64,000 bases of DNA, from the NCBI GenBank assembly GCA_003452935.1, contig DMMY01000005.1:57858-121857 (forward strand), read 5' to 3'. The DNA comes from Elusimicrobiota bacterium (GTDB lineage: Bacteria > Elusimicrobiota > Elusimicrobia > UBA1565 > UBA9628). Of the stretch, positions 1,585-33,429 are shown in pieces (within the stretch, counting starts at the first letter, position 1; the number at the start of each line of letters is the position of its first letter). The notes under the pieces were generated by a model. It did not search any database. It saw nothing but the letters and a program-made list of their open reading frames with translations, and had not been told where the DNA came from. The position numbers and the translations under genes are program-made.

Positions 1585-1589
1585 GGACT

Positions 1590-16990: not shown

Positions 16991-19366
16991 TCAATTTTGC
17001 GCATACAGCTTTTCCAGGGCGCCGAGGGCCTGGGCCGGGGTGAATTCCAGGAGGATACGTTCCCGGCCCGCTTGCCCGAGCTTTCGGCGCAGGGAGGCGT
17101 CGTGGGCCAGGCGCAGGGCGGCCCGCAAAAGAGAAGCTTCATCGCGAGCCAGCAGCCCCGTGACATCCGGGATGACGGCGTCCTGGTTGCCCGGCGCGTC
17201 CGAGGCCACGACCGGCAGTCCCAGGGCCATGGCCTCCAGGACCGCGTTGGGCAAACCCTCCCAGCGGGAGTAATGGACCAGGATGTCGAGCTCGCGCATC
17301 TTCTCCAAGGCCTGTTCTGGCTTGAGCCAGCCGGTGATTTCCAGATTTCCTTGGAGGCCGCGCTCATGCGCGAGGCGCCGGATGTCTTCTTCCTGCTCGC
17401 CGCCGCCGATCCAGATAAAGCGCGCATCCGGCCGCGCCCGGCGCAGCCCGGCCGCCAGCCTGACGAAAGCCTCGGGATTTCGGGCCGCGGTCAGGCGGCC
17501 GCACGCGCCGAGCGCGAGGCCCTCATGGGGCAGCGGAGGCGGCGGCTCGGCGGGGCCGAGGTAGGGATCGCAGACCGTGTGTACGGGGTTTCCCCAGTTC
17601 AGGGAGCGGGCGAGTCTCGCCTCGCTCGGCGAGACCGCGACGATCTCTCCTATCCAGGACACGGACCATTCCGCGGCGCGGTAGAGCAGGCGGGAGGCCG
17701 GGCTCCGGTCCGTCTGGAGAAATGAATAGCCGTGGGGAGAGTAGAACACCCGCGGCGCCCCTGTAAGCCAAGCGGCCAGCCGGGCCAGGACTCCGGCCTT
17801 GGATGAGTGCGCGTGGACCGCGTCCGGGGCTTCCCGGCGCATGATGGAGCATAGCCGGACGAATGCTTTTAGGTCTCGCCCAAGGGAAATCTCCCGGACC
17901 ATGTCGGGCACGTGATAAGCGGTCTTGGCGCCGGGAACTTGGCCGCGGTATTGCTCCGGGTCTTCGCCGGGCCGGACCGCGTAGACCAGGACCGCGTCGA
18001 AGCGCCGGGGGTCGAGGCCGTTGCAGATGGCGGCCACCTGGTTGCCCGTGCCTCCGGGACCGCCGCACTCCAAGACTTCCAAGACCTTGGTTCGGCCTCC
18101 TTTTAAATTCGGACGCCGCGGCCCCAGGCTGGCGGCGAAAGGAAATAGGAGCGGGAGGTAGAGGATTTTATGCCGCGTGGCGCTGCCCAGGTCGAATTCC
18201 AGCAGCGCCGAACCCGCGGCCATGACCGCGAAAAGGCTCAAGAGAAGCCATCGCGCTATTGTTTTTGGCCCGCGCCAAGCCCCGAGCAAGCCGGCCAAGG
18301 CGAGGATCAGGAGCACGGAGTTCTCCAGGGCCGCCAACACGCGTCCGAGGTTTCCGTCCATGGCATAGAGGCCGGGCAGGGGCATGAAGAGGACGTAGAA
18401 AACCCCTTTGGGCAGAAACGCGAGAACATCCCACCAATTGTTGAATTCCAAATCAACGAAGAGCTGCGTGCCGATCTCGCGGCCGGCGTTGTCCTTGGCC
18501 CATATCCGGTCCGAAAGCTGGCGGACGCGCCGCGTTTCCGAGAGATTGCGCGGGCTGTAGGGCGCGACATACCGGTCGAGACTGGGACTGTAGGTGGGGG
18601 GCATGATGGCATGGATCACGGCCGGGTCCGGCACATCCGAGGGGGGCGGCTTGAGGCAATCAGTGAAGATCACGCGGCTTAGGTGCAGGTAAAGCACGGG
18701 GGCGCCTGCCACGAGCGCGGCCGTTGCCAGAACCTTTCCCCAGGGCAGGCCCCGGCGCAAGCGTCTGGCTGTTTCAGCGCATAAGCCGGCGGCCAGGACG
18801 CAGGCCGTGGTCGCGGCCAAATAGCTGCGCAGAAACCCGACTCCCACCAGGGCTCCTACAGCGGCCAGACCATCAGCCGGCCGGATGGGATTGTCGCGAA
18901 AAATCCTCAGGACGAAGGCCAGCGCCGCATAGGCCAGGAGCAGTATCCAGGAGTCCTTGAAGTTCTGGGACGTAAAGAAGATGTGCGAAGGCCATAAGGA
19001 GAGGCATAGGGCGCTTATGGCGGCGGGCCCCGCTCCAAATAAAGGAGCGCTGAATTTAAAGAAAACGACGATGACCAGGGCGCCGAAAAAGGAGTTGAGG
19101 ATCTTGGTCAGGAGCGGGTGGAAGCCGAAGGCTCTGTAGCAGCAGGCCAGCAGGAAGGCATGAGTGCGCTGTGACGGGTGGCGCGCCGAGAGATATTCCT
19201 CGCCCCGTTGCCAGGAGGAAACCATGTCCCGGGCCGTTTCCTCCATGAGCCGGGCATCGGTGTAGTAGTGGGCGGGGAAAACAGGCTTGACCTCGCTGAC
19301 CAATGCAAAGCCGACGCGCAGGCTCAGGGCCAGCAGGAACAGGAGGCGCGCCGGGGACTTGGTCAT
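16991..19366 (-). CDS. Fusion protein: N-terminal ~420-aa polytopic membrane domain (paralog of 28064..29404) plus a C-terminal GT4 glycosyltransferase
   Basis: The N-terminal half is hydrophobic multi-TM, ends in the motif FDLGSATRH and aligns with the standalone protein at 28064..29404 (VDLGSATRH). The C-terminal half has GT4 hallmarks: KVLEVLECGGPGGTGNQ, HAHSSKAG and EGLPNAVLEAMALGLPVVASD. Confidence 0.7.
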   Translation of the reverse strand: MTKSPARLLFLLALSLRVGFALVSEVKPVFPAHYYTDARLMEETARDMVSSWQRGEEYLSARHPSQRTHAFLLACCYRAFGFHPLLTKILNSFFGALVIVVFFKFSAPLFGAGPAAISALCLSLWPSHIFFTSQNFKDSWILLLAYAALAFVLRIFRDNPIRPADGLAAVGALVGVGFLRSYLAATTACVLAAGLCAETARRLRRGLPWGKVLATAALVAGAPVLYLHLSRVIFTDCLKPPPSDVPDPAVIHAIMPPTYSPSLDRYVAPYSPRNLSETRRVRQLSDRIWAKDNAGREIGTQLFVDLEFNNWWDVLAFLPKGVFYVLFMPLPGLYAMDGNLGRVLAALENSVLLILALAGLLGAWRGPKTIARWLLLSLFAVMAAGSALLEFDLGSATRHKILYLPLLFPFAASLGPRRPNLKGGRTKVLEVLECGGPGGTGNQVAAICNGLDPRRFDAVLVYAVRPGEDPEQYRGQVPGAKTAYHVPDMVREISLGRDLKAFVRLCSIMRREAPDAVHAHSSKAGVLARLAAWLTGAPRVFYSPHGYSFLQTDRSPASRLLYRAAEWSVSWIGEIVAVSPSEARLARSLNWGNPVHTVCDPYLGPAEPPPPLPHEGLALGACGRLTAARNPEAFVRLAAGLRRARPDARFIWIGGGEQEEDIRRLAHERGLQGNLEITGWLKPEQALEKMRELDILVHYSRWEGLPNAVLEAMALGLPVVASDAPGNQDAVIPDVTGLLARDEASLLRAALRLAHDASLRRKLGQAGRERILLEFTPAQALGALEKLYAQN

Positions 19367-20556
19367 GTCTGCGCCTCTGCCTTGACCCAGATGATGATAA
19401 GGAAGGTGGCGACCAGTTCATTCTGGAAGGATATTTCCGTCAGGTTCATGACCAGGAACGCGGCCATGGTCCCCAAAGCCCATAGATTCCAAGCGTTGGG
19501 CAGAGCCCTGACCCTTTGCCAGGCCCTTGCCAGCATGGCCGCGAACAAAGCCAGAAGCGCGGCCAGACCCAGCAGGCCTCTTTCCGCCAACTGGTGCAGA
19601 TACAGACTATGGGCCGAGCCCCACACGCGTTGGGTGGCGATCTCTCCGGAAAAATAGCGCGGAAACACCGTGCGGTAATTTCCCGGCCCCACGCCCAAGA
19701 CCGGGTGGTCGCGAAACGCGCGCCACGCCACGTCCCAGAGCGCAAGCCGGTCGAGTTGGGGGTTGGAGCCGGGTTTGGCTACGGTGGCGCCGAAATCGCG
19801 CAGGGAGCCCAGCAAGGATCTGTGTGTGGGCAGAAGCTCCAAGGCGACTGCGCCCAGCATGGCGGCCAAGAGGGCCCATTTGATCCAGCGGCGCAGTTCG
19901 CGGTCCGCGGCGCAGAGCGTCAGAAACCCGATGAACAAGGCCAGGAAAGCGGCCCGGGTTTGGTTGAGGATGAAGGCCAAAGTCCCGATCCCCAAAAAAA
20001 CGAGCAATTCCCTTTGCCGAGGCTGATTCTGGCCGGGACGCAGGAGAAAGCAGAGCGCCCCCAACAAGGCCAGGGCCAGCATGTCGCCGTAGGTCACCGG
20101 GTGCATGAACCCGGAGGCGCGGATCCAGAACCAGCCGTTGGCCGCGCTTTTCACCACGGACTGCGCGGCGCCGTAGCCCGCGACGGCGGTAAAGCCCAGG
20201 ACCAGGGCCGCGGCCGCCGGGGCTTCGGGCGCGCAGACGCAGGCGAGCAAAAGAGCGTAGAAGACGCCGATCTTGTGCAGTTCCTTGGGCAGGATGCGCA
20301 GGCTTTCCGCGGGCGCGACCCCGAGCGCGCCGGTCAAGGCGCACACGGCGACGTATATCCAAAGGCAGAGGGCGGCGGCTCCCCATGTCCTGCGCCAGGG
20401 CAGGCGGCCCGCGCTTAGGGCATGCCACATCAGCCCCGCGCACACCAGCCCCAGGGCTATATTGGTCCCGGCGATGGAAAAGGGCAGGGCCAGGCAGAGC
20501 GCCGTTACGGAGGCGGCCATGAGGCCCTTAGGGGACAACGGGATCTTATGCATCCC
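19363..20556 (-). CDS. O-antigen ligase/polymerase-like (Wzy_C-type) polytopic membrane protein
   Basis: ~10-12 predicted TM segments with a central loop region (LNQTRAAFLALFIGFL...) typical of Wzy/WaaL family proteins. The track ORF starts at 20634; an internal MHKIPL start at about 20556 is preferred because it only marginally overlaps the upstream gene. Confidence 0.65.
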   Translation of the reverse strand, partial: GMHKIPLSPKGLMAASVTALCLALPFSIAGTNIALGLVCAGLMWHALSAGRLPWRRTWGAAALCLWIYVAVCALTGALGVAPAESLRILPKELHKIGVFYALLLACVCAPEAPAAAALVLGFTAVAGYGAAQSVVKSAANGWFWIRASGFMHPVTYGDMLALALLGALCFLLRPGQNQPRQRELLVFLGIGTLAFILNQTRAAFLALFIGFLTLCAADRELRRWIKWALLAAMLGAVALELLPTHRSLLGSLRDFGATVAKPGSNPQLDRLALWDVAWRAFRDHPVLGVGPGNYRTVFPRYFSGEIATQRVWGSAHSLYLHQLAERGLLGLAALLALFAAMLARAWQRVRALPNAWNLWALGTMAAFLVMNLTEISFQNELVATFLIIIWVKAEAQT

Positions 20557-22630
20557 CGTCCCTGATTTCAGAGGATACGGTGGTTTCTCCGATCTTGCGG
20601 GAGTTCCGGCCGATCCCGATGCTGTAAATCTCAAGCCTGACCCGGCAAGGGCCTATGGGCAAAGTCCCTTTTGTGCGCAGGACATAGGATTCGCGCATCG
20701 CCCGGCCCGCGCGCCATGACGACGGCGGCTTTTGATCGTTGAAAAGAGGCCAGAGCACCGGGGTTTTTCGGCCCAACGTCGGCGAGGGATAGACCGGCTC
20801 GTAAAGGACGCGGCTGCGGTTGTCGTACACGGTGAGCAGCACGACGAAATCATCGGTTTGGCTGCGGCGCGCGATCCAGCCGAGGTCCAGGCGCAGGAGC
20901 TCCGGCTTGGCCTGCAGGGCAACCTCGGCGAGCTCCAAGCCCGGCATTCCGGGCACCGCGGAGCCTGACCGCGCGGAAGCGGGTTTTTCCTCGACTTTGT
21001 CCAGGGCCGCGGCCATGTCCAGCCGGACCAGGCTCTGACAGCCGGGCACTGGCCGCGTCTCGCGTTCAAAAGCCCGGCCTTGTGGGTCCCGCATGCGCAC
21101 TTCACGGATGCAGCGGAACTCCGTTCCGGAGATATAGGCGACGGCGTTGATGCGGGAATACGGCAGCCAGCGAAACGTGGAGCGGTTCCATATGGAAAGA
21201 TCGTTCAAATAGAACGCCCCTTCCCGCGTCGGCGTGAGCTGGTAATCGCCGTCTACGAGGTTCTTCCGGCCCGCGGCGCGGATAGCGGCCATGGGGGCGT
21301 CATGGTAGAGGTGGAAGGCCGGGGCTTTCTTGACGTAACGGGGCGCGCCTATGACGAAAATGTTTTCGAAATCCGGGAAGAATCGGGCGGCCTCCTTGAG
21401 ATATGCCTGGTGCAAGCGGTGCGTGTAGGCCCATTCGCTGCCTTCGTGAACATTGGCGACCACGGCGTTGGCGAAGAGAAGAACCGACAAGACCGTCAGC
21501 GTCCGGCCCGCGAGCGGACGGCTCTTTATCAGCCAGACGGCCGTCCCCACGCACAGGAAGGCCCAGCCCAGGGAAGGGAGATAATTGTGGCGGGGGTTCA
21601 TGTACCAGAAATAATTGGGCAGGTAGGCGAGAAAGAACCAGGCGCAGCCGAAAAACATAAGGCGCAGCGGAGCCGGGGAAACGCGCCAGGCATCCCATGA
21701 GGGCCGATCAGCCTCGGCCCAGCGGCGCACGAGGCGCGCGATCAGCCAGCCTGTGAGCAAGGCGGCCGCGGTCAGGGCCGCGGTCCAGCCCCAATGCGAA
21801 AGCCGTCCCGGGCTGGGCAGGGAAAACATCCCTTTGATTGGTTCAAGAATGCTCTGGGGCAGGCGTAATAGGATATTTTTCCACTGGATCACCGGCCTGC
21901 CGCCGAATGATTTTTCCGAGAAATGCCGCATGAGGACATGGGTCAGGTTGAGGCTCAAGACCAATGCCGCGGCCATCAGGAAAACACGAGGCCGGCGCTC
22001 CTGCGGAGAGCTTCGAAACCACAGCAGCATGAGAAGCAGCGGCCAAAGGAAAAACACTTGATCGTAGGTGAACAGTGCCGCGATATAAAGCCCGAGGCAT
22101 GCGAACAGCCTCCGCGGAAGGCTGGTCTTGCGCCGGGCGGCGAGCCAGAAAGCCAGGAGGCAAAGCAGCGTGGGGATCTCGCATTGAACGAATTGCGTGA
22201 ACCAGAAATGAGTTTCCCCGTGGTTGGGCAGGAGGGCGAAGATCAGGGCGATGGGCAGGGCCACGCAAGGCAAGGCCGTGAGCTCCCAGGCCAGAAGATA
22301 TGCCAGAATGGCGCTTAAAGCGTCGCCAAGGAGGATAATGCGGTGGAGCCAAAGCGCGGATTGGTTGGTGATTCCCGCCAAGATCCAGAAAAAAAATATT
22401 TGGAGGTTTCGCCCGGGAACATAATGAAGGAAATAGTCCCATACCTCGGCCGCGGGCTGGCGAACCGTCATCAAGAAGGAATGATCGTCCATGTAGAAAC
22501 CGGACCATAGGCCAGGGGCGAACGTGGCCAGGACTATGGCCACGACGATGAGCAGGGGCAGCCAGGATTTTTTATAGAGAGAATCAGACACTTGCAGGCG
22601 CCGGGAGGGATCGTGTCGTCCCTGAGGCAT
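20546..22630 (-). CDS. GT-C-fold-like polytopic membrane protein with a C-terminal soluble domain (ArnT/PMT-like glycosyltransferase candidate)
   Basis: 694 aa. The N-terminal ~400 aa has many TM helices and an early FYMDDHSFLM motif in the first loop (acidic DD resembles the GT-C catalytic loop). The C-terminal ~290 aa is soluble. It is a paralog of the divergently transcribed 22679..24265 (FYQDDWFTME). Confidence 0.5.
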   Translation of the reverse strand: MPQGRHDPSRRLQVSDSLYKKSWLPLLIVVAIVLATFAPGLWSGFYMDDHSFLMTVRQPAAEVWDYFLHYVPGRNLQIFFFWILAGITNQSALWLHRIILLGDALSAILAYLLAWELTALPCVALPIALIFALLPNHGETHFWFTQFVQCEIPTLLCLLAFWLAARRKTSLPRRLFACLGLYIAALFTYDQVFFLWPLLLMLLWFRSSPQERRPRVFLMAAALVLSLNLTHVLMRHFSEKSFGGRPVIQWKNILLRLPQSILEPIKGMFSLPSPGRLSHWGWTAALTAAALLTGWLIARLVRRWAEADRPSWDAWRVSPAPLRLMFFGCAWFFLAYLPNYFWYMNPRHNYLPSLGWAFLCVGTAVWLIKSRPLAGRTLTVLSVLLFANAVVANVHEGSEWAYTHRLHQAYLKEAARFFPDFENIFVIGAPRYVKKAPAFHLYHDAPMAAIRAAGRKNLVDGDYQLTPTREGAFYLNDLSIWNRSTFRWLPYSRINAVAYISGTEFRCIREVRMRDPQGRAFERETRPVPGCQSLVRLDMAAALDKVEEKPASARSGSAVPGMPGLELAEVALQAKPELLRLDLGWIARRSQTDDFVVLLTVYDNRSRVLYEPVYPSPTLGRKTPVLWPLFNDQKPPSSWRAGRAMRESYVLRTKGTLPIGPCRVRLEIYSIGIGRNSRKIGETTVSSEIRDGDA

Positions 22631-22678
22631 CCGGAATTATAACAAAAGCAGCCGAGCGTATTTTTTCCGTTTGGTATA

Positions 22679-24265
22679 ATGGTCGTCTCGAAATCCTTTA
22701 TGCTTATTGACTCGCGGCCTTGCCGGGCATGGCTCTTGGCCGCGGCCTTGATCGCGGCCGTGCTCGGGGCTTGGCTTGCCTTTCCTCCGACGGGTTTTTA
22801 CCAGGACGATTGGTTCACCATGGAGGACTCCGCGCGCGGCCGCACTCTGCTCGACGCCGTGCATGCCTTCGCCGCCCGCGGCTGGAACTGGCGGCGGCCC
22901 GCGCAGATCGTGCTCATGCCTCTGGCTCATAGAGCGGCTCTTAATCGGCCGGCCGTAGCCGCCGGCATCCTCGCGTTTCTCGTGGCCCTCGAGGCGTTGC
23001 TCCTTTATGGACTGGTGCGTCGCATGACCGGAAGAGCCGCAACGGCGTTGGCGGTTACGGGGTTCGTGCTTCTTTATCCGGGTAGGCCGTCTTTTCAGAT
23101 GTGGTTCGCCGACATACTGCAGACCACGGCTCAGCCTCTCGTGCTCGGGGGGCTCTGGCTTTATAGGGATTGGGTCGAGTCACGCCGGCCCGCCAGGCTG
23201 TTCCTGGCCCTGGGCCTTTATCTTGCCGGAGCATCATGTTATGAGGCCGCTTTTTTTCTGCCCCTGATACTTTTGGCTGATCCGGCCATTCTTCCAGGCG
23301 CTGGGCCCTGGCGGATGCGGCTGCGCCGCGTGGCCGCCCGGACCTGGCCTCTGGCCTTGGCCATGGCAGCGGCCGTTCTCTGGAATCAGGTGATTCTCGC
23401 GTGGATTACTTCAACGGCGCTGAGGCCCCCGAGTTGGTCCCTGGGTCTGGCGTTGAAAGGCTTGGGGGCCGGTTTTGAATGCGTCAGTTCGCGCGTCCTG
23501 CATGAGTGCCTGCGGTCCGTGGGCCCGGCCTTGCGGGGATTCTCGGCCGGGCATTGGCTCTTGGCCGCGGCCTTGGCGATTTTTTTCGCCTGGGCGCTGG
23601 AGTCCGCTTTGCGCCGCGAAGCCGAGGCTCTTCCCACGACCTGGTGGGTCGGCACGGCCGCCGCCTTCTTAGGGGCTTACCTGCCCTACGCTTTCTCAGG
23701 AGGCTACCAGCCGACCATGCACGGCATCATGAGCCGGACCAACGGCGCGGGCGCCTGGGTTTTCGGCATGCTGGCCGCGGGCATCCTGGCTTCCTGGCCC
23801 GCGTCATGGTCCCGGTTTCGGCCTTGGTGCTTGGGTCTGGCGGCCATGCTGCTTCTGCCGGCCAATTGGACGCAGCGGCAGGATTGGGCGAGAGCCTGGA
23901 GGGAACAGCAAAGGATACTCGACGATATCCGGATTCAAGCCAAGGATATTCCCGGCCCGGCCACGATCGTCCTTTCCTCATCGCTCTATGTCGGCGATGT
24001 GGTCGTGTTTGACGCTCCCTATGATTTCGATTCAGCCCTGCATTTGGCCATCAACCGCAAGGATTTGACCGGAGCCATCGATTCGTGGCGGTTTCGATTT
24101 CGCCCGGATCGAGCCTTGGAGGCGCCAGGGGGACAGTTCGTCAGAGAATATAGTTACGATCGGATGTTCCTTTATGATCCTCAAACGCGCGAGCTGCTCA
24201 GGGTCTCTGGGCCGCCGGATGCCCGTTGGGCCAAAGAACATCCGGCGCGCCTGATCCAGCTCTGA
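22679..24265 (+). CDS. GT-C-fold-like polytopic membrane protein (paralog of 20546..22630)
   Basis: 528 aa, multi-TM, with an early loop motif FYQDDWFTMED. The likely start is the internal M at about 22700, because an extended -10-like TGGTATAAT overlaps the 22679 ATG. First gene of a 4-gene plus-strand operon. Confidence 0.5.
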   Translation: MVVSKSFMLIDSRPCRAWLLAAALIAAVLGAWLAFPPTGFYQDDWFTMEDSARGRTLLDAVHAFAARGWNWRRPAQIVLMPLAHRAALNRPAVAAGILAFLVALEALLLYGLVRRMTGRAATALAVTGFVLLYPGRPSFQMWFADILQTTAQPLVLGGLWLYRDWVESRRPARLFLALGLYLAGASCYEAAFFLPLILLADPAILPGAGPWRMRLRRVAARTWPLALAMAAAVLWNQVILAWITSTALRPPSWSLGLALKGLGAGFECVSSRVLHECLRSVGPALRGFSAGHWLLAAALAIFFAWALESALRREAEALPTTWWVGTAAAFLGAYLPYAFSGGYQPTMHGIMSRTNGAGAWVFGMLAAGILASWPASWSRFRPWCLGLAAMLLLPANWTQRQDWARAWREQQRILDDIRIQAKDIPGPATIVLSSSLYVGDVVVFDAPYDFDSALHLAINRKDLTGAIDSWRFRFRPDRALEAPGGQFVREYSYDRMFLYDPQTRELLRVSGPPDARWAKEHPARLIQL

Positions 24266-24315
24266 TTTTTCCAGGTGCGGCCGTCAAGTCTCCAGAGTTG
24301 GTATGATATCGCAGG

Positions 24316-26502
24316 TTGGAAGGAACTAAGACGGCAGTAAATCCCCCTGATATGGGCCGGCGGATATGGGACCGCCAGCCGCTTTTGGCGGCGTGCGTTG
24401 TTTTGGGCTTGTTTCTGTTGTGGCAGGGATTTTCCCTTCATTCTTTCCTAAGAACGGAAACGAGGCCTCCGGCCTGGGACCAGGCCAATCATCTGGACGT
24501 CGCTTGGGAGTATAGGGACGCCCTGCTCCAGGGAGACTGGGGGCGCGTCTGGAACTTCGTCCCAAAGAGCGATATCCCGCCTTTCCCGCCGCTCTATCAC
24601 CTCGCCCTGGCCTCGGCGCTGAGTTCTGGGAACCAGACTTGGATTGTGCTCTGGGTCAATTGGGTCTATCTGGTCCTGTTGAGCTTTTCCCTGCTGGGCA
24701 TTGCCTGGGAAATGCGTCGGGAAGTCTCGGCCGCGGCCGCGCCGCTCATCTTGGCCGGGACTCCCATCGTGCTATGGCTTTTTTATAACCAGCTTCCGGA
24801 TCTGGCGTTGACCGCCTGCGCCGCCCTGGCCTACTGGATGCTGCTGCGCTGCGCGGGTTTTTCGCGCTGGCCCTGGGCTTTGGGATTCGGCGGAGCATTC
24901 GCCTTCGGCATGCTTCATAAATGGAGTTTTTTCAGCTATCTGTGGCCCGCCTATTGGCTGGCTTTTCAGGCCTGGCGGAGGCGTGAAAACCGGGCCCAGG
25001 TCTTGGCGGCTGCTGCCTTGGCGCTGGCCTTGGCCTTGCCGTGGTATGCTGTCCGTTTCCCCCTGGTTCTGACTCGTCTGGTCGCGGCTTCCTCTGATTT
25101 TGCCGTGCCGTTTTGGCGGCAGGGGGCTTTCTTCCAGTATTTCCGGGACATGATTCCAAACCTGGGGATATTCTTCTTCGCCCTGGCTTGGGCGGGAGCC
25201 TTTCGTCCCAAGGTCTTGCGGGAGTCCGCTCAGGCGCGAGTGCTGCTGGCCTGGGTCCTGTCTTCGTATCTGTTTTGGGCCATTGTCCCGAACCGACAGA
25301 TGCGCTACCTCCTGCCCGGGCTGCCCGGCTTGGCGGTTTTATGTTGGCTGGCCTGGCCCAAGAGGATCATATGGGGCTTGGCGGCTTTGCAGGTGTTGAC
25401 CGCGGCCAATTTCACGCGAGGTTGGATCAAGCCCGTGTCATTGCCTGCGCCGCTGGGCTTGGTTCAATTTTTTCCGCAAGGAATGCCGCGCCGGGAAGAC
25501 TGGCGCATCGAGGAGATACTGCGCGAAGCGTCCGGCAGGTCCCGCACGGATTTGGTCCTTGCGGCCAACCATCCGTTCTTCAATGAACTTAATTTTATTT
25601 GGACCGCGCGCCGGCTGGGCCTGGATTCGGTCCGATTGTCAGGCCCCGGCGCGTCCTTGTGGGAACTTTCCGATTTGGTCCTGCTCAAGGAAGGGGACCT
25701 TGGCCCGGCCGCAGTGACGGCCGGACTGCCTGAAATATCGGCCGAGATGAACCGGCCGGGCGGCTGGTTCGAGGCCGCGTACGGCGAAGCCAAGCGTTGG
25801 CCCCTGCCTGACGGGTCCGCGGCCGTGCTCTTCGAGAAGAAAAAATATTTGCAGAGACCTTTCCCGGCCAGGGCGTTGAATATGGACCGCCTCGATGCGG
25901 GGGCTCTGGCCATGTCCGGACTGCGCGTTATGTTTGGCGATTGGGACCCAAAGGCTTCGGTCTTTCGCCGCGTCTCCCTTTCCGCCAAGGAAGCGCTCTG
26001 GCGGGGTCTGCGGGTCCGTGACCTTAGACTGGACTTGGAAGATGCCCTGCCCTGGCCTGAAAGCCGGGATCTGGAGCGCGGCCGCTGGCGCTTGCTCAAG
26101 CTGGGACGGGTACGGATTGCCGCGGCCTCTGTTTCAGCCGGGGATTTGGAGCTCTTGCTGTTGAATCGCGGAGTGCGCGCGCGGCGGCTGGAACTCGAGG
26201 GAGGATTGCGCCTGGACGCTTCCTATCGCGGGTTGCCGGTTTCCATAAAGGCCGGGCTTGAGCAGGCTGATTCCGGAGAGTTCCTCCGCCTTGGCGTGAG
26301 CGAGTTCCGGTTGGGAGGCGTTTCCTTGCCGGCTGAGAGGATGGTCCGGTTTTTCCTGGGCGCGCCCCTGCTGGCGGCGCGCCGGCTTGGCCGCTCTACG
26401 GCGATCGAGACCGCGCTGCATCCCGGCGAGCCGAAGATCCTTCCCTTTGCCGTGGATTTGGCCGGATTTTCTTTTCATTCCGGGAGGATGACGGTCCCAT
26501 GA
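24316..26502 (+). CDS. ArnT/PMT-like (GT39/GT83-type) GT-C membrane glycosyltransferase with a C-terminal periplasmic domain
   Basis: 728 aa. The N-terminal ~400 aa resemble ArnT-type polyprenyl-phosphate-sugar-dependent transferases: early periplasmic loop PPAWDQANHLDVAWEY, 10+ TM helices and KWSFFSYLWPAYWLAF. A ~300-aa soluble C-terminal domain follows. Confidence 0.65.
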   Translation: MEGTKTAVNPPDMGRRIWDRQPLLAACVVLGLFLLWQGFSLHSFLRTETRPPAWDQANHLDVAWEYRDALLQGDWGRVWNFVPKSDIPPFPPLYHLALASALSSGNQTWIVLWVNWVYLVLLSFSLLGIAWEMRREVSAAAAPLILAGTPIVLWLFYNQLPDLALTACAALAYWMLLRCAGFSRWPWALGFGGAFAFGMLHKWSFFSYLWPAYWLAFQAWRRRENRAQVLAAAALALALALPWYAVRFPLVLTRLVAASSDFAVPFWRQGAFFQYFRDMIPNLGIFFFALAWAGAFRPKVLRESAQARVLLAWVLSSYLFWAIVPNRQMRYLLPGLPGLAVLCWLAWPKRIIWGLAALQVLTAANFTRGWIKPVSLPAPLGLVQFFPQGMPRREDWRIEEILREASGRSRTDLVLAANHPFFNELNFIWTARRLGLDSVRLSGPGASLWELSDLVLLKEGDLGPAAVTAGLPEISAEMNRPGGWFEAAYGEAKRWPLPDGSAAVLFEKKKYLQRPFPARALNMDRLDAGALAMSGLRVMFGDWDPKASVFRRVSLSAKEALWRGLRVRDLRLDLEDALPWPESRDLERGRWRLLKLGRVRIAAASVSAGDLELLLLNRGVRARRLELEGGLRLDASYRGLPVSIKAGLEQADSGEFLRLGVSEFRLGGVSLPAERMVRFFLGAPLLAARRLGRSTAIETALHPGEPKILPFAVDLAGFSFHSGRMTVP

Positions 26503-28067
26503 GCGGCGAACCTCTTTCCGCGTCCAACCTTGGCGCGTGGCGTTGCGCGGCCATGGCTTTGTGCGCGGCCGTGCTGGCGGCCAATGTTTGGCATTTGCTG
26601 GTCCAGACCGCGCCTCCGGCATGGGACGACGCCTGGTATCTTGAGGTAAGCTTCCGTCTTTATCAGGCTCTCAAAGCCGGCTTGATGAATTTTCTGCAAT
26701 CTTATGCGCATGCCTTCCGCATCAAGGCTCCTCTGATCGCGGTGCTGCCTCTGCCGCTCTACGCGGTTTTCGGGACCGGGGAGCGCATTGCCCTGTGGGT
26801 CAACATGCTGGCCCTGCCCCTGACGTGGTTGTTCGCCTTCCGGATCGGCCGGCTGTTTTACGGGGAGAGAGCAGGACTGGCCGCGGCCATGGCTTGCGCC
26901 TTGCTGCCCTTAAGCTACGGCCTTTCGCGGTTTTTTTATGTCGAGTGCGTTTTGACGGCGTTCGTGACTTGGTCGGTATGGGAAATCCTGCGGGTTCGCG
27001 CCGATGACCGCTGGGCCGGCGCCAGGCTGGGAGCGCTTCTGGGCTTGGGGCTTCTGGCCAAGTCCTCATTTTTGCTCTATGTCATAGGCCCTATCTGGCT
27101 GCGCCGCGAAGCATTGCGTCCTCACGCCAAGACCGCCTTGGTTTGCGGGGGGCTCCTGGCCTCCACTTGGTATGCCTGGAATCTTCCCTTTGTCGCGGGA
27201 TTCGGACTGAGCGCGGGTTTTGGGAGCATCTCCCATAGCTACGGCAGTCATGCTCTATCTTACGCGGCCTTGCGCGGCTTCGCCGTCCAAGTTGTTTTTC
27301 AAGCATTGTCCTGGCCATACGCTCTCGTGGCGGTCGTCTTGCTCGCGGCCGCCTGGCAGAGCCGGCCGCGCCCTTGGAACTGGGGTGATCGCGAATGGTT
27401 CTTGCTTTTCTGGCTGGGGCTTCCGTTTCTGTGCGTGGCCTTGGCGGTCAATAAACAAGTGCGCTATCTTGCGCCCATCCTTCCAGCCCTGGCCGTGGCC
27501 GTAGGCGCGGCCGCGGCCGCAGTGGCTTCGGGAACGCTGCGCACCGCCATGGCGGCCCTGCTGACGCTGGCTCCGGCAGCGGTTTTTTGCGGCCAGACTT
27601 TCGGAATTCCAGAATCCAGGCCGATGTTTTTCAATGGGCCGCCTTCGCGCGATCCGGGCTGGGACCGGCGAGCCGTGGTGGAAACTTTAGTAGCAAAGGC
27701 TCCTGAGGGAGCGGTCGTGGCCATAGGTTTTGAGCATGCGCTTTTCAACGCGAACAATTTGGCTTCCTTGTCCTTTGCTTTGGGGCATCGTTATGAATTC
27801 GTCAACCTGGTCCAAGGGAACAATACGGTTGAGGACGCGCTGATCCGGCTCAAGGATAAATCAGCGGCCTACCTTATCATGGTCCAGGGGGAGCTTCCCG
27901 CAGAGGTCGGGACGCCCCATGATTTCCTCAACCGGGCCAATGCCGGGATTCAAGCCCGCCTCGGTGACGGAAGGCTGAAGGCGACGCGCTTGGACGCGAT
28001 CCCGGTCAGCCACAAGGTTTCGGCGGTTCTTTATAAGCTCGGCGTTGGCCGCGGGGACGAGGAATGA
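26499..28067 (+). CDS. ArnT/PMT-like (GT39/GT83-type) GT-C membrane glycosyltransferase
   Basis: 522 aa. PPAWDDAWYLEVSFRLYQ occupies the same first-loop position as the preceding paralog. It has 11-13 TM helices, and its start overlaps the upstream stop (ATGA coupling). Confidence 0.65.
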   Translation: MSGEPLSASNLGAWRCAAMALCAAVLAANVWHLLVQTAPPAWDDAWYLEVSFRLYQALKAGLMNFLQSYAHAFRIKAPLIAVLPLPLYAVFGTGERIALWVNMLALPLTWLFAFRIGRLFYGERAGLAAAMACALLPLSYGLSRFFYVECVLTAFVTWSVWEILRVRADDRWAGARLGALLGLGLLAKSSFLLYVIGPIWLRREALRPHAKTALVCGGLLASTWYAWNLPFVAGFGLSAGFGSISHSYGSHALSYAALRGFAVQVVFQALSWPYALVAVVLLAAAWQSRPRPWNWGDREWFLLFWLGLPFLCVALAVNKQVRYLAPILPALAVAVGAAAAAVASGTLRTAMAALLTLAPAAVFCGQTFGIPESRPMFFNGPPSRDPGWDRRAVVETLVAKAPEGAVVAIGFEHALFNANNLASLSFALGHRYEFVNLVQGNNTVEDALIRLKDKSAAYLIMVQGELPAEVGTPHDFLNRANAGIQARLGDGRLKATRLDAIPVSHKVSAVLYKLGVGRGDEE

Positions 28068-29404
28068 ACTGTTCCAGGGCAAGGGTTTTGTCCGGGAAAT
28101 TCGGTGCATCAGCGCTTTGGGTTTTGTTGCTTTCGGCAATCGGGGTTCGGTGGATTTCGGCCGTGGTCATGGATCGGCATCCGATTTTCCCGGAATATTA
28201 CTATGCGGATGCCCATCTTTATGATGCTCAAGCTCGCGTTCACGCTGCGACCATGAGGGGGGGAGTCTTTCAGCCGTCGAATCTGACCCCGGGTCGGGAA
28301 CTCTATACCCGCTGGGTGGCTTGTCTTTACTATCTTGCGGGGCCGTGTCCTCTTTTGCCGATGCTTATCAATGGTGTCTTGGCGGGAGCGGCCATCCTGC
28401 TTTGGCACCGGATCGTCTTGTCCGCCAGCAGGGATAACGGACCGCCTGGACGGCGCGTTGCTTTTTGGGCGGTTTTATTCCTCGCTTTTTGGCCGACGCA
28501 TGTTTTTTATACGTCCCAGAATCTTAAGGAAGCCATGATGCTTTCGGCCTTGGCTGCCGCGTTTTTGTCCATTGCCGGCCGCCGGGATTCCAACGAGAAG
28601 AGTTGGATCGTGTTTTCGCGGATTGCCGCGGGAGGAGCGGCTCTTTTCTTTTGCGGCCTGCTGCGGGCTCATATCCTGCCTTTGGCAGCCGCGGCCTTGC
28701 TGGGGGGGGAGGTCTGGAGATTCCTTACGGTCCGCCGTCCGGAAGCGCGCAGAGTCGGGGCGCTGGTCTTTCTGGGTGTGATCGGGGTTGTTGTCTTGTT
28801 TCAAGTTGTCTCGCCTTTGATTTTCAACCGGCTTAAGTCCTATGGGCCGGATGCGTCGGTGCCTTTTGTCAGAGATTTGACGCAGTCCTCGGGCAATGTG
28901 AGGCCGTATAGCCAATGGAGCGCGGCGTGGTTGACGGATTTTCGCAAGATCCGGCAGCAGCGCGACCAGCAATGGGCCTTGCGCAAGGAAGCGCGGCAAA
29001 TTCAAACCCAGATTTTTCCCGACGCGGAATTCCGGGATTGGCAGGATATCTGTTTCTTTCTTCCTAAGGCCGCGTTCTACGTCCTTTTCATGCCTCTGCC
29101 CGGCCTCTACGACATGAGCGAAAATCTCGGCCGCTGGTTGGCCTCGTTGGAGAACTTGGCTCTGCTGACAATGTTCATCGCGGCGTTGTCCGGCCTGCGC
29201 CGGCGCTGGAATTGGGCCATGGCCGGGCCCTGCGCCTTGTTTTTCGCGTTAATGTGGCTGGCGAGTGCCTTGACCGAGGTTGACCTTGGCAGCGCTACCC
29301 GGCATCGTTTGATCTACTTTCCTTTTCTTTTGCCCTTTACCGCTGTACAGGCTTCAGCCTTCTGGGATTGGCTGCGCGAGCATATAAGGGAGAGGGTGGG
29401 CTAA
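28064..29404 (+). CDS. Polytopic membrane protein, paralog of the N-terminal domain of 16991..19366 (GT-C-like candidate)
   Basis: 446 aa, multi-TM. Shares with 16991..19366 the N-terminal motif HPIFPEYYYADAHLYD (vs KPVFPAHYYTDARLME) and the C-terminal motif VDLGSATRHRLIYFPFLLPF (vs FDLGSATRHKILYLPLLFPF). Start overlaps the upstream stop. Confidence 0.5.
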   Translation: MNCSRARVLSGKFGASALWVLLLSAIGVRWISAVVMDRHPIFPEYYYADAHLYDAQARVHAATMRGGVFQPSNLTPGRELYTRWVACLYYLAGPCPLLPMLINGVLAGAAILLWHRIVLSASRDNGPPGRRVAFWAVLFLAFWPTHVFYTSQNLKEAMMLSALAAAFLSIAGRRDSNEKSWIVFSRIAAGGAALFFCGLLRAHILPLAAAALLGGEVWRFLTVRRPEARRVGALVFLGVIGVVVLFQVVSPLIFNRLKSYGPDASVPFVRDLTQSSGNVRPYSQWSAAWLTDFRKIRQQRDQQWALRKEARQIQTQIFPDAEFRDWQDICFFLPKAAFYVLFMPLPGLYDMSENLGRWLASLENLALLTMFIAALSGLRRRWNWAMAGPCALFFALMWLASALTEVDLGSATRHRLIYFPFLLPFTAVQASAFWDWLREHIRERVG

Positions 29405-30979: not shown

Positions 30980-31008
30980 ATTGTACCAATTGGCCGTCGT
31001 CAGGTCAA
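30980..31008 (-). promoter_or_regulatory. Promoter/operator B: -35 TTGACC, 17 nt, -10 TACAAT, with an overlapping TGTTCgAAgaTTgAACA imperfect inverted repeat (30964-30980) just downstream
   Basis: The minus strand reads ctTTGACCtgacgacggccaattggTACAATgttcaatcttcgaacaaagtccgaccATG. It has the same architecture and about 30 nt of near-identity with the element upstream of pseB (57568..57596). Confidence 0.5.
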
Positions 31009-33429
31009 AGCCGCGTCCGGATTTCGGGGAACGTGCAGCAGGTAGTAAGAGAGACCCAGCAGATAGGCGCCGACAAGCGCCATGCCCGCTCCCCACACTC
31101 CCCAGCGGGGGATGAGCCAGAGTCCCAGTCCGACGTTTCCCAGCCCGGCCAGCAGGTTGCCGACGACCGAGACGCGCAGGCCTGAGAAGTCGCGGGCCAT
31201 GAACAGGGCGGCGCAGATTCCGTGGAGCAGGATAAGGGCCGCGGCCAGGGCAAAAGTCGCGATCCAGGCCCAGTGGAACGGATATTGCCGGCCGAATATG
31301 GACAGGGCCGCCACGGCGCTCAAGGAGAAAAGCAGGAGGGAGGCCGCGGCCAGGGCCGGGCGCAGGCGGCGCAGGCTGCGCCAGGCCTCGTTCTGGCCCT
31401 CGGGGTTGCTGGCCACCGGCACCAGGACAGAGGTGATGATGTAGAGAAACGCGAGGCTGATCTGCGCGGTGGACGTGAAATAGGCGCTGAATATGCCTAC
31501 CTGGTGCGCGTCGAAGAACCGGTTCAGGAAGAGCCGGCCCGGGCCCACGATGCAGGCCGCGGTCAGGAGGTTGAGCGCGGCCATCAAGGTGTAGCTGAAG
31601 ACGATTCGGATGGCGGCCGGATCAAAGATAGGCTTGAGGTAGGTCCTGAGGTTCCAGCCCGAATATACCGCGGCCAGGGCCAGGCTCAGGCACAAGGTCA
31701 GGATGATGGCGTGGTAGGTTCGGGTGCCGTGCAGCACGAAGACCAGGAAGAACAGGGGAGCGGAGAAGCCGTAAACGGCCTCGGACAAGCCGCGCTCCGC
31801 GAAGCGCTGCAGCCCCAGAAGGGGGCTGGAGATGACCACATAGAGGGCCGTGCAGAAGGAGAAAATAATGGAGTCCGTGATGATTTCCGCTGGCACATTG
31901 AGGGAGCCGGCGATGGCGCCTCGCAAAAATGTCAAGGCCGCCAAACAGAGGACGGCCCAAAGCCCGAACATGCTCAGGGTCGTGGAGACGAGTTTTTCCC
32001 GCGCCGGCCGGGAGGGTTCGCTGGAGGGGAACTTGCTCAAGGCCCATTGAAAACCCATCATGGGCAGGATCTGGATGAATGAGGCGATGGCGATGACGAG
32101 GTTGGCCTTCCCGAAATGTTGGGGTCCCAGCACCCGTCCGGCCAGTATCTGGGTCGCCAAGGTGGAGATTTTGGCCATGCCGTAAAGCAGTCCGATCCAG
32201 GTGAATCCCCGCAGAAACGAGCGGGCGTGCTTGCGCTCCCACCAGGGCCCGTCCGCGCACGCGGCGGCCTGACCGGACGCGGCGGGCCGCCGAACCTCTT
32301 GCCAGGCCTTGCGCATCGCCGCCCGGAAGCGGCCGAACTCGGCCGGGTAGGTGTGCTCCAGAGCCAGGCTTCGGCGCTCTTCGCGCAGTCCGGCGGTCTC
32401 GGTGGCGGGCAGGTTACGGGCGATGCGCACCCAGTCCTCGGGAGAGTCCGCCACGTAGACGAGGCGGCGCAGGGGAGCGAAGGCCGGCAGGGGGGTGGCG
32501 AGGATGGGCCGGCCCATGGCCAGGCATTCGTATATCTTGGCCGGGATCACGCCCAGCAGGAACGGGTTGATGCGGTAGGGCAGGATGAAGACGTCGAAAT
32601 TTTCGAGGCGCTGAACCAATTGCTCGCGCGGGACCGGCGGCAGTCGCCGTATGGCGGGGGGCAGGGGCGAAGCCGAGCCCTTGGAGAAGCCGCTTACCGT
32701 CACGCTGAAACCCGCCTCGGCAAGCGCGACGGGAAACCGTGGATCGAGGTCCTGGCCCCAGGTTCCGTAATAGCAGAACCTGAGAAACCTCTGCTCGGCG
32801 GGGCGGGCCGCGAAGAAAGACTCCGGCACCCCTTGATGGATCTGAACCACGTTGCCGTGCTCCGCCCTTTTCTGCTCATAGAGGAAGTCCGAATCGCAGA
32901 TTACGAGATCCGCGCGTCCGAGCAGTTCGGCTTCCTGCCGGGCGAAGTCCTTTGGGGCTCGGGGATGGGCGCGGAAATTGGAAGCGCAGTCGTAAATGAC
33001 CGCGGCGGGCTGCAGCTGGCGCACAAGCTCCAGCGTCGTGGCCGTTGGAAAATACGTTATGACCAGGGGATGGCGGCGCAGGCCCCGGCTGCGCAGGGAG
33101 GCGATGAGCTGCGGGATCAGAATGCCCGCGTTGAAACGCCGGAAGGGAGGGTAGGTCGGCGGCAAGAGCTGGGGCGGCATGACGCGCAGAGCATGCGGCA
33201 GGGACTCCTGGGACGACGGGTCGGGAGCGTCGGCCAATCTGCGCAGTTTGCGCCAGAGGCGCGGAAGGTCTTTGAGTCCCGGGTTTCTAAATCCGGAGTT
33301 TTCCACGAAAAAGACTTCATGCCCGGCTTGGGCCAGCTGCCAGGCGAATATCTGGTGGCGCTGCCAGGCCGCGTCCCAGTCGATGCTGCTCAGGACCACG
33401 ACTTGGGACTTTTCGAACTCTTCCATCAA
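31000..33429 (-). CDS. Bifunctional fusion: N-terminal TuaH-like GT4 glycosyltransferase plus a C-terminal Wzx-type (MOP superfamily) polysaccharide flippase
   Basis: Residues 1-~400 match the TuaH/WcaL-like GT4 pattern: VVVLSSIDWDAAWQRHQIFAWQLAQAGHEVFFVEN...IYECLAMGRPILATP. Residues ~410-809 are a 12-TM polysaccharide-biosynthesis (Wzx) type transporter: MAKISTLATQILAGRVLGPQHFGKANLVIAIASFIQILP... Last gene of the long operon. Confidence 0.7.
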   Translation of the reverse strand: MMEEFEKSQVVVLSSIDWDAAWQRHQIFAWQLAQAGHEVFFVENSGFRNPGLKDLPRLWRKLRRLADAPDPSSQESLPHALRVMPPQLLPPTYPPFRRFNAGILIPQLIASLRSRGLRRHPLVITYFPTATTLELVRQLQPAAVIYDCASNFRAHPRAPKDFARQEAELLGRADLVICDSDFLYEQKRAEHGNVVQIHQGVPESFFAARPAEQRFLRFCYYGTWGQDLDPRFPVALAEAGFSVTVSGFSKGSASPLPPAIRRLPPVPREQLVQRLENFDVFILPYRINPFLLGVIPAKIYECLAMGRPILATPLPAFAPLRRLVYVADSPEDWVRIARNLPATETAGLREERRSLALEHTYPAEFGRFRAAMRKAWQEVRRPAASGQAAACADGPWWERKHARSFLRGFTWIGLLYGMAKISTLATQILAGRVLGPQHFGKANLVIAIASFIQILPMMGFQWALSKFPSSEPSRPAREKLVSTTLSMFGLWAVLCLAALTFLRGAIAGSLNVPAEIITDSIIFSFCTALYVVISSPLLGLQRFAERGLSEAVYGFSAPLFFLVFVLHGTRTYHAIILTLCLSLALAAVYSGWNLRTYLKPIFDPAAIRIVFSYTLMAALNLLTAACIVGPGRLFLNRFFDAHQVGIFSAYFTSTAQISLAFLYIITSVLVPVASNPEGQNEAWRSLRRLRPALAAASLLLFSLSAVAALSIFGRQYPFHWAWIATFALAAALILLHGICAALFMARDFSGLRVSVVGNLLAGLGNVGLGLWLIPRWGVWGAGMALVGAYLLGLSYYLLHVPRNPDAALT

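Follow-up and report, generated by a model that had tools for sequence, protein, structure and literature searches.

Two long open reading frames in the window (the whole stretch of 64,000 nucleotides that we analysed, from an uncultured Elusimicrobia bacterium, with a GC content of 63%) each appear to join a glycosyltransferase to a polytopic membrane protein in a single chain. They raise the question of whether such proteins are genuine and, if they are, what they tell about the organization of the glycan pathway to which they belong. Whether Wzx/Wzy pathways run on one physical complex, in which the flippase is associated with the transferases of the cytoplasm and the enzymes of the periplasm, is still argued, mostly on weak two-hybrid data; contacts of glycosyltransferases with Wzx and Wzy have been proposed, also on ambiguous two-hybrid data (PMC7589315, PMC9961541). 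A search of the open-access literature for GT-Wzx or GT-C/GT-B fusions and for Elusimicrobia glycan clusters turned up no account of these architectures, and public annotations name only one half of such proteins ('oligosaccharide flippase family protein', 'glycosyltransferase family 4 protein').

The features discussed below are listed in Table 1. Besides GT2 and GT4 genes, the cluster, which would make a cell-surface sugar polymer, encodes an initiating phosphoglycosyltransferase, DegT aminotransferases and sugar-nucleotide enzymes, a gene content that fits a Wzx/Wzy pathway. The gene for protein A lies between that of a Wzy_C membrane protein, whose stop codon overlaps the start of A, and that of the glycosylphosphotransferase, directly downstream. 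The genes for A, B and D show the third-position GC (GC3) pattern of real genes; C failed the GC3 filter, as did its neighbours on the plus strand except 24316..26502.

Table 1. Features of the window considered in this study, with the evidence for each.
Feature	Position	Strand	Evidence or remark
Small GT2, 233 aa, polyprenyl-phosphate sugar synthase-like (AglJ, ArnC, PpgS)	883..1584	-	
Initiating polyprenyl-phosphate glycosylphosphotransferase (Bac_transf, WcaJ/WbaP type)	15510..16976	-	TIGR03025, 349 bits, above cut-off
Protein A, entire reading frame	16991..19366	-	Uninterrupted; ATG start; 791 aa
A, C-terminal GT4 domain, predicted cytoplasmic, residues 427-791	16991..18088	-	Pfam, Foldseek, EX7E motif
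A, basic linker, residues 413-426, SLGPRRPNLKGGRT	18089..18130	-	
A, N-terminal membrane domain, GT-C-like (PMT_2), residues 1-412	18131..19366	-	Pfam, AF2, motifs, charge profile
Wzy_C membrane protein, O-antigen ligase/polymerase-type	19363..20634	-	Pfam Wzy_C, E 7e-20
Two PMT_2-type (GT-C) membrane proteins (24316-26502 and 26499-28067)	24316..28067	+	Directly upstream of C
Protein C, free-standing paralogue of the A membrane domain	28064..29404	+	446 aa; 36% identity, E 7e-56
Protein B, entire reading frame	31000..33429	-	809 codons; likely ATG start at 33426, giving 808 aa
B, C-terminal Wzx-type (MOP superfamily) domain, putative lipid-linked oligosaccharide flippase	31000..32232	-	Polysacc_synt, Foldseek
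B, linker, about residues 379-398, low-confidence	32233..32292	-	pLDDT <50 at 381-392
B, N-terminal GT-B glycosyltransferase-like domain, predicted cytoplasmic, residues 1-378	32293..33426	-	AF2, Foldseek, weak TuaH/Glyco_trans_1_4
Protein D, second free-standing MOP/Wzx-like transporter	49973..51484	-	503 aa; MatE and Polysacc_synt matches

The AlphaFold model of protein A is confident (pLDDT 88.9), with a helical membrane domain. By its family scores and predicted structure, the C-terminal half is a canonical GT4 of GT-B fold. Residues 437-790 match the Pfam families Glycos_transf_1 (E 6e-29) and Glyco_transf_4 (E 5e-17), with scores of 101 and 63 bits where the cut-offs are 26-28, and the EX7E motif is intact (WEGLPNAVLEAMA). 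Foldseek retrieved BshA, PimB', PglA and MshA with TM scores of about 0.8. The linker in front of this domain contains a Shine-Dalgarno-like string, AAAGGAGG, at the place where split homologues carry a ribosome-binding site and an ATGA stop/start overlap. Because no ATG or GTG start lies at the right spacing from this string, separate expression of the GT4 half is unsupported.

The membrane half of A had been called GT-C-like, with a free-standing paralogue, in a first-pass annotation made from the letters of the DNA. Both statements are supported: Pfam PMT_2 matches residues 69-226 (31.9-33.6 bits, cut-off 26.1), and the domain is paralogous to C over its full length (Table 1). PMT_2 was matched by 10 of the 28 members of the family, and a few members gave weak matches to the DUF2142, STT3, PMT or Alg9-like models. 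C itself had no match to GT-C clan models; the members of its family are Elusimicrobia proteins of about 430 aa that stand alone. When the membrane-domain alignment was used as a profile to search every PDB sequence, nothing was returned, even at E 10. We do not claim paralogy of the domain with the neighbouring PMT_2 proteins or with a 694-aa membrane protein, for which hhalign gave only insignificant alignments.

The domain is predicted to have 10 transmembrane helices and two interfacial helices, with both ends in the cytoplasm. The charge profile across the family supports this topology, and it is consistent with the fusion, as a cytoplasmic GT4 requires the same orientation. The conserved polar motifs are predicted to lie on the periplasmic side. 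The following positions are invariant among the 28 members: D37 (YYTDA); W125, P126, F130 and Q134 in the motif WPSHxFxTSQNFKD; L326 and M328-P331 in FMPLPGLY; and D392-G394, A396, R398 and H399 in LEFDLGSATRH. Judging by the AlphaFold2 helices and the charge profile, the acidic residue D37 would be placed in the first extracytoplasmic loop, just after TM1. Such an early invariant aspartate in the first periplasmic loop, together with the PMT_2 match and the weak matches to other GT-C clan models, recalls the PMT_2, ArnT and GT39-GT83 enzymes. Compared with these enzymes the domain is far more compact, at about 415 aa and about 10 predicted helices; it has no C-terminal periplasmic domain, carries the distinctive motifs given above, and is found in one chain with a cytoplasmic GT4, with a TuaH-like GT-B or with Wzy_C. 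This family, now annotated as 'hypothetical protein', is probably a minimal form of GT-C enzyme.

Gene order gives circumstantial support for a polyprenyl-phosphate-linked sugar as its donor. In about 20 related loci the membrane domain is adjoined by a small GT2 whose best matches include AglJ, a dolichyl-P-hexose transferase, ArnC and PpgS, that is, proteins resembling polyprenyl-phosphate sugar synthases, an arrangement like that of three-component systems composed of a GtrB/ArnC-type GT2, a flippase and a GT-C enzyme. The small GT2 encoded in the window shares 33-34% identity with the GT2 proteins that in relatives are encoded between Wzy_C and the membrane domain.

Protein B was also modelled with confidence (pLDDT 87.9), and had been described in the first-pass annotation as a TuaH-like GT4 fused to Wzx. 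The flippase part of that description stands: residues 406-674 match Pfam Polysacc_synt (PF01943, 59.2 bits, cut-off 28.2), and the best Foldseek matches of the C-terminal half are structures of WzxE (9g9n/9g9p, E 7e-11; TM(target) 0.75-0.77, about 420 aligned columns), with MurJ and MATE after them. On this profile match and model, the half is a genuine Wzx-type MOP fold and a putative flippase. It resembles E. coli WzxE and other Wzx flippases in its signature, in its top structural match and in its setting, a cluster that also encodes an initiating phosphoglycosyltransferase and a Wzy_C protein. Unlike WzxE, with which it shares only about 20% sequence identity, it bears a covalent N-terminal GT-B domain of about 380 aa, and a half-Rossmann insert brings some of its relatives to about 950 aa.

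For the N-terminal half of B, the model gives a GT-B fold, but the assignment to GT4 or TuaH was not borne out by the Pfam and NCBIfam cut-offs. The domain has the two-Rossmann GT-B fold, with Foldseek matches to MshA, BshA, PglA and GumK (E 1e-8 to 1e-6), and carries the motifs SSIDWDAAWQRHQIFA, FFVEN and PAKIYECLAMGRP; the motifs that the earlier annotation had quoted are indeed present in the translations. TuaH, of the B. subtilis teichuronic acid pathway, weakly matches its C-terminal subdomain, and the domain shares with GT4-type enzymes a PAKxYE motif like those that bind nucleotide sugars. Unlike TuaH and these enzymes, it scores below the family cut-offs (Glyco_trans_1_4, 19.9 bits against 27; TuaH NF047676, 33.7 against 550), and its EX7E motif is incomplete, retaining only the second glutamate (E300 in YECLA), with a glycine eight residues upstream. 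Its catalytic competence is thus deduced from conservation only.

These departures might suggest that one half of a fused protein is catalytically dead, for instance that the GT-B of B only caps Wzx, to bind substrate or to regulate it. About 40 residues of this half, mostly polar or Gly/Pro, are nevertheless invariant among 33 homologues, including the K297/E300 pair in PAKxYECLA. The domain has 7704 relatives, mostly stand-alone proteins of about 380 aa, and close stand-alone homologues (58% identity, 387 aa), which points to an autonomous enzyme family and makes a dead half very improbable.

Each long frame could also be two genes that a frameshift or an overlooked stop codon ran together in the metagenome assembly. 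The window does come from a metagenome-assembled genome, and an error of one or two nucleotides could merge the frames of a membrane domain and a GT4 that in relatives are split by an ATGA overlap. Protein A was however recovered in identical form on 12 contigs and protein B on 15, from independent samples, sequencing runs and assemblies made with different assemblers. Full-length homologues occur in dozens of Elusimicrobiota genomes (47-56% identity for A, 37-62% for B), and the fused architecture is kept in 19 divergent aligned homologues of A and 32 of B, with variable in-frame linkers (differing in length and sequence in the case of B) between two conserved halves. The GC3 coding signal also runs continuously across both frames. 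The identical copies and the divergent fused homologues effectively refute an artefact, the probability of which we regard as negligible. Because the same joins recur across the phylum, both represent genuine evolutionary fusions between genes that neighbour one another in the pathway, in line with the first-pass annotation, which had taken them for fusions.

We then placed the fusions among their relatives by scanning GTDB species representatives and carrying out a domain census with our own HMMs. The genes recur in the order GT-B(-Wzx), Wzy_C, small GT2, membrane domain and GT4, forming a conserved cassette restricted to the phylum. The fusion of GT-B to Wzx had been thought uncommon; within Elusimicrobiota it is the majority state (about 35 species representatives), and the term could apply only outside the phylum. 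Split forms are found as well: in at least 12 species the membrane domain and GT4 are encoded separately, the stop codon of one overlapping the start codon of the other as ATGA or GTGA, and GT-B and the same Wzx family are separate in L048 and L051. Other arrangements occur too: GT-B is joined to the membrane domain in P0065, P0066 and L059 and to a GT2 in P0064, and stands alone beside Wzy_C in L005, L033 and L038; Wzy_C is joined to the membrane domain in P0102 and L001 and to a GT1 on the P0065 contig. This recombination of the same domains, fused in some genomes and split in others, suggests that the GT-B, Wzx, Wzy_C, membrane-domain and GT4 proteins work together at the membrane. Varied pairwise fusions within one phylum, split in sister genomes, constitute natural evidence on working partners.

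The same pattern bears on the mechanism proposed in the first-pass annotation, in which the GT-B half of B adds the final sugar and channels the completed unit to its own Wzx, while D opens another export route, gated differently, within the same operon. Such channelling would suit a fusion that is physical and conserved, and Wzx enzymes are selective for complete units. A contact between the terminal glycosyltransferase and the flippase has also been speculated upon (PMC7589315). Nothing marks the GT-B of B as the last transferase, however, and in close relatives (58-67% identity) this module has partners other than a flippase or stands alone beside Wzy_C. The partner would thus be a membrane or pathway neighbour and not specifically the flippase, and we consider this mechanism, with its coupling of the last sugar addition to flipping, unlikely.

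The reading that we favour, with a probability of roughly 0.7, is an Elusimicrobiota-specific, Wzx/Wzy-type assembly of a glycan on a lipid carrier, in which the fusions tether soluble transferases to membrane partners. Two pairs of adjacent, translationally coupled genes of the pathway would have been welded into single genes: in B, a cytoplasmic GT-B is attached to the N-terminus of Wzx, and in A a compact membrane transferase of GT-C-like type carries a cytoplasmic GT4 at its C-terminus. The soluble transferases would thereby be anchored at the membrane, each in a fixed 1:1 ratio to the membrane partner acting on the same lipid-linked intermediate, and part of a multi-enzyme complex may be hard-wired in this way. 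On the cytoplasmic face the GT-B and GT4 domains would transfer sugars from nucleotide-sugar donors, Wzx would flip the lipid-linked glycan, and the GT-C-like domain and the Wzy_C protein would act on the periplasmic face, where their donors are probably polyprenyl-phosphate sugars supplied by the small GT2 of AglJ/ArnC type. Fusion can also be neutral; many related genomes do well with split genes, so that a selective advantage through channelling is conjectural.

A different division of labour is suggested by the distribution of the membrane domain, which occurs at 22 of the 26 loci that have a GT-B-Wzx fusion and at none of the 13 that have a stand-alone GT-B (Fisher p = 3e-7, counting species representatives whose downstream sequence spans 6 kb or more; the statistic ignores phylogeny and the association may reflect a single clade). 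Wzx and the membrane domain might then be a functional pair in a Wzx-dependent, three-component periplasmic glycosylation, B making and flipping a lipid-linked donor from which the membrane domain (A, C) transfers to an acceptor. The direct fusions of GT-B to the membrane domain and the putative GT-C affiliation of the latter would agree with this. On the other side, the 8 kb downstream in L048, where Wzx is separate, contain no membrane domain (for L051 only 3 kb are available), and the AglJ/ArnC-like GT2, which is present with or without the membrane domain, is a more conventional supplier of donors to a GT-C enzyme. We judge this pairing to be quite unlikely.

The most far-reaching reading would be a hard-wired, two-sided assembly line for a conserved envelope glycan: GT-B-Wzx would make and flip a lipid-linked donor that is consumed in the periplasm by the membrane domain, itself fused to GT4, GT-B or Wzy_C. 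This would amount to three-component glycosylation that depends on Wzx, with enzymes of both faces covalently paired. We hold this reading to be improbable; if true, the fusions would be direct 'Rosetta stone' evidence for the long-postulated complex of glycosyltransferase, flippase and polymerase. A known parallel to the idea of such a complex is the Pss system of Rhizobium leguminosarum (PMC7589315, PMC9961541), where soluble transferases are proposed to work at the membrane and to contact the flippase, the polymerase and other transferases. There the contacts are non-covalent, with ambiguous two-hybrid evidence for the flippase, whereas the Elusimicrobiota link is covalent and conserved in evolution; similarly, TuaH and GT4 enzymes are peripheral and soluble, whereas the transferase domains of A and B are tethered to polytopic membrane proteins. 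As single polypeptides, A and B are suited to structural work on a transferase-GT-C and a transferase-flippase unit.

There remains D, which had been taken as a second free Wzx forming, with B, two differently gated routes in one operon. It is indeed a Wzx-like gene. The absence of significant BLAST similarity to the Wzx half of B rules out that the two are recent duplicates, and the two-route reading is not supported: D lies 16.5 kb upstream of B beyond several intergenic gaps, where it belongs to a separate sub-cluster of nonulosonic-acid genes (NeuB, CMP-transferase and PseB-like).

Two genes of the glycan-biosynthesis region, which spans about 13 kb to 59 kb of the window, encode proteins made of two joined modules: A, a compact GT-C-like membrane domain followed by a GT4, and B, a TuaH-like GT-B domain followed by a Wzx flippase. 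Most likely, these are true fusions, conserved in evolution, that joined neighbouring pathway genes within a Wzx/Wzy-type glycan assembly cassette, which appears to be specific to Elusimicrobiota. ORF check and translation recovered both, together with the two other genes named in the first-pass annotation: C, a free-standing paralogue of the A membrane domain, and D, a second, free-standing Wzx-like gene. Long spurious ORFs are frequent at high GC, and the window has a GC content of 63%. In A, B and D the codon positions follow GC3 > GC1 > GC2, as real genes do; C fails this filter, as do its plus-strand neighbours except 24316..26502, and was taken as coding because it has homologues. The start of B was set from the homologue alignment and the database copy. 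Public gene calls give C a downstream Met start (411 aa), with which TM1 would be lost; the 446-aa start forms an ATGA overlap with the upstream stop codon and agrees with the family alignment. The longest Wzy_C ORF has 423 aa, versus 385-396 aa in database calls.

Features of the window discussed in the text, with positions and strand
Feature	Position	Strand	Remarks
AglJ/ArnC-like small GT2, UDP-xylose-synthase/ArnA-like SDR, UDP-glucose dehydrogenase	883-3850	-	side by side
Homologue of the cassette's small GT2	883-1584		
1861-aa ORF	7479-13064	-	GC3 0.88, strong coding signal; just outside glycan cluster; no Pfam match at E 0.001
WcaJ/WbaP-type initiating phosphoglycosyltransferase	15510-16976	-	near A
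A	16991-19366	-	791 aa
Linker of A	18089-18130	-	
Wzy_C	19363-20634	-	stop overlaps A start
Membrane-protein region	20546-29404	both	dense in polytopic membrane proteins
C	28064-29404	+	446 aa
B	31000-33429	-	809-codon ORF; 808 aa from ATG at 33426
B12-binding (three) and SPASM (one) radical SAM genes	36053-37675, 40143-41690, 48468-49976, 47385-48404	-	among sugar-nucleotide genes
Nonulosonic-acid-type sub-cluster	44058-57535	-	NeuB, two CMP-transferase-like genes, PseB/Polysacc_synt_2 dehydratase, SDRs, 2-hydroxyacid dehydrogenase, D
D	49973-51484	-	503 aa
Large protein of the sub-cluster	51487-53478	-	663 aa; no Pfam match
Protein of the sub-cluster	55503-56468	-	321 aa; no Pfam match

Proteins 100% identical to A (DEB40_00155) and B (DEB40_00110) are found in an Elusimicrobia metagenome-assembled genome, and the exact proteins were called on 12 and 15 contigs, respectively, from different runs and assemblers (Logan SRR5855241, SRR5855239 and SRR6487967; JGI 3300009296; GCA_003509925.1). 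The fused architecture recurs in 19 A-type (47-56% identity) and 32 B-type (37-62% identity) homologues, which keep both halves and join them in frame by short, variable linkers. These identical proteins on independent contigs and the divergent fused homologues exclude, for practical purposes, an artefact through a frameshift or an overlooked stop codon, and both fusions proposed earlier are genuine.

In A, Pfam detects PMT_2 (residues 69-226, above the gathering threshold) and a complete GT4 (437-790) in which the EX7E motif is present. In B, it detects a Polysacc_synt (Wzx) domain at residues 406-674; GT matches over residues 1-380 are weak, as is an NCBIfam match to TuaH (264-360). Domain searches bear out the flippase half of the proposed TuaH-like GT4-Wzx fusion and match its transferase half weakly. 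D matches MatE and Polysacc_synt in Pfam. AlphaFold2 models built on homologue alignments were confident for both proteins (pLDDT 87.9 for A, 88.9 for B), the sole disordered stretch of B being its linker (381-392). In Foldseek searches against the PDB, the C-terminal half of B matched the lipid III flippase WzxE best (9g9n/9g9p, E 7e-11, TM 0.75-0.77), with MurJ and MATE transporters next, and its N-terminal half resembled the GT-B enzymes MshA, BshA, PglA and GumK. The latter has about 40 residues invariant in 33 homologues, and its EX7E motif is reduced to the second Glu (PAKIYECLA). The C-terminal half of A resembled the GT4 enzymes BshA, PimB', PglA, MshA and WaaG (TM about 0.8).

C has no match in a Pfam scan and aligns over its whole length with the membrane domain of A (36% identity, E 7e-56), as expected of the standalone paralogue described earlier. 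We aligned 28 members of this family: the N-terminal half of A, C, stand-alone homologues and one split homologue. Invariant residues are D37 (YYTDA), W125, P126, F130 and Q134 (WPSHxFxTSQNFKD), L326 and M328-P331 (FMPLPGLY), and D392-G394, A396, R398 and H399 (LEFDLGSATRH). PMT_2 was matched by 10 of the 28, and a few others gave weak matches to DUF2142, STT3, PMT and Alg9-like models; we take PMT_2, PMT, STT3 and Alg9-like to be GT-C families, with DUF2142 presumably in the same clan. In databases, some copies bear the name 'ArnT-like' or 'family 39', and the family profile detected no PDB sequence. The AlphaFold2 helices were combined with the family-wide charge profile, in which a strong positive charge marks the N-terminus and loops 200-210, 364-371 and 413-426, and loop 390-394 is acidic. 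The domain is predicted to have 10 TM and two interfacial helices (64-80, 311-327) with both ends cytoplasmic, since this is the sole arrangement meeting parity. The conserved polar motifs would then be periplasmic and the fused GT4 cytoplasmic, a position that would agree with the requirement of its chemistry.

A perfect Shine-Dalgarno-like string, AAAGGAGG, lies within the linker of A at the position where split homologues carry a GGAG ribosome-binding site and an ATGA stop/start overlap. We estimate a probability of roughly 0.002 that a 7-mer of this kind would occur by chance within 30 nt. No usable start codon was found at the right spacing after it. This location fits an origin of A by fusion of coupled genes.

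We scanned all loci fetched from related genomes (L numbers) with five HMMs (the GT-B and Wzx of B, the membrane domain, the GT4 of A, and Wzy_C). The recurrent order is GT-B(-Wzx), Wzy_C, small GT2, membrane domain, GT4. The best matches of the small GT2 (about 230 aa) include AglJ, always first, dolichyl-P-hexose transferase, ArnC and PpgS, all of them polyprenyl-phosphate sugar synthases. GT-B and Wzx are fused in about 35 species representatives and are separate genes, with the same Wzx family, in L048 and L051; a free GT-B also adjoins Wzy_C, for example in L005 (58% identical to the N-terminal half of B). The membrane domain and GT4 are fused in the window, L015, L016, L019 and L020, and are adjacent with an ATGA/GTGA stop/start overlap in at least 12 species. 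Other combinations are GT-B-membrane domain (proteins P0065 and P0066, and L059), Wzy_C-membrane domain (P0102, L001), Wzy_C-GT1, and the GT4 of A joined to another GT4 (P0091, P0097). This combinatorial pattern of fused and split states, classic Rosetta-stone evidence, indicates that the GT-B, Wzx, Wzy_C, GT-C-like and GT4 modules probably act together at the membrane. In a B sub-family (P0013 and P0021, about 950 aa; L040, L042-L049), an extra N-terminal half-Rossmann copy of about 150 aa lies between GT-B and Wzx; in L041 (5804-7636), half-Rossmann-Wzx is its own 610-aa gene, with the full GT-B 4.7 kb upstream.

With one genome per GTDB species, relatives spanning both halves of B came solely from records labelled Elusimicrobia/Elusimicrobiota and from two labelled just 'bacterium'; the next relatives, from Rubrobacteraceae, Chloroflexota and Planctomycetia, matched the GT-B half only. 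Among 1.84 billion cluster representatives, 7704 relatives of the GT-B family were detected, mostly stand-alone (about 380 aa), with some fused to GT2, WecG or DUF218. Only about ten of the best 150 are as long as a Wzx fusion. These all rank with the sequences closest to B, and Polysacc_synt was found in all four scanned. Across the GTDB Elusimicrobiota representatives L014-L072, 22 of 26 loci with fused GT-B-Wzx carry the membrane domain, versus 0 of 13 with free GT-B (Fisher p = 3e-7, in a test that ignores phylogeny), suggesting that the Wzx and GT-C-like modules come as a pair.

The simplest mechanism would be tethering: in each fusion, a soluble transferase that depends on nucleotide sugars would be held at the cytoplasmic side of a membrane partner working on the same lipid-linked intermediate, and the two would be present in 1:1 stoichiometry. 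A could then be a two-sided enzyme, with its GT4 on the cytoplasmic face and its GT-C-like domain on the periplasmic face, the latter probably fed polyprenyl-phosphate sugar by the small GT2. Channelling of the last sugar addition into flipping, as suggested earlier for B, is possible and not favoured, because the same GT-B occurs equally in fusions with the GT-C-like domain or with a GT2, or as a free protein. Glycan-enzyme fusions are common in general, and the domains of A and B all belong to known superfamilies. Two things appear to be undescribed: the phylum-wide cassette, and the conserved covalent attachment of cytoplasmic transferases to a Wzx flippase and to a minimal GT-C-like membrane domain. 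Searches of open-access literature found no description of these architectures, and public annotation names each fusion protein after one half only. No new biochemical principle is demonstrated by the fusions; they offer specialists natural evidence for pathway complexes and a structural target.

On the minus strand, A lies in the order Wzy_C, A, WcaJ/WbaP-type enzyme, DegT aminotransferase, GT4. Divergent from this group, the plus strand carries a 528-aa protein, two PMT_2 proteins (728 and 522 aa) and C. Like a 694-aa protein of the same region, the 528-aa protein lacks a Pfam match and combines a multi-helix membrane part, its N-terminal half, with a soluble C-terminal part of 200-300 aa; L001 and L003 carry same-position homologues of the 694-aa and 728-aa proteins (30-40% identity). 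B comes after an epimerase, a nucleotidyltransferase and a LegB-like dehydratase, and before a MarR-type regulator and a KpsF/KdsD-type isomerase. D lies 16.5 kb upstream of B, beside NeuB, two CMP-transferase-like genes, a PseB-like dehydratase and radical SAM enzymes, and BLAST found no similarity between it and the Wzx half of B. A second, free Wzx-like gene exists as the first-pass annotation had stated; its placement in one operon with B finds no support here, and intergenic gaps of 400-1000 bp lie in the interval.

The Arn-pathway-like trio at 883-3850 could supply the GT-C-type proteins, which lie 20 kb away, with a polyprenyl-phosphate pentose or uronate donor. The radical SAM genes suggest that sugars are C-methylated in an unusual way or modified by other radical chemistry. 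From 58000 to 64000, GC falls from about 0.64 to 0.50-0.58. Encoded there are a response regulator, an AlgX-like SGNH protein and a surface protein of 1268 aa. The last of these has NHL, fn3 and TIG repeats and weakly resembles the Por secretion C-terminal sorting domain (E 4e-4, under the Pfam cut-off).
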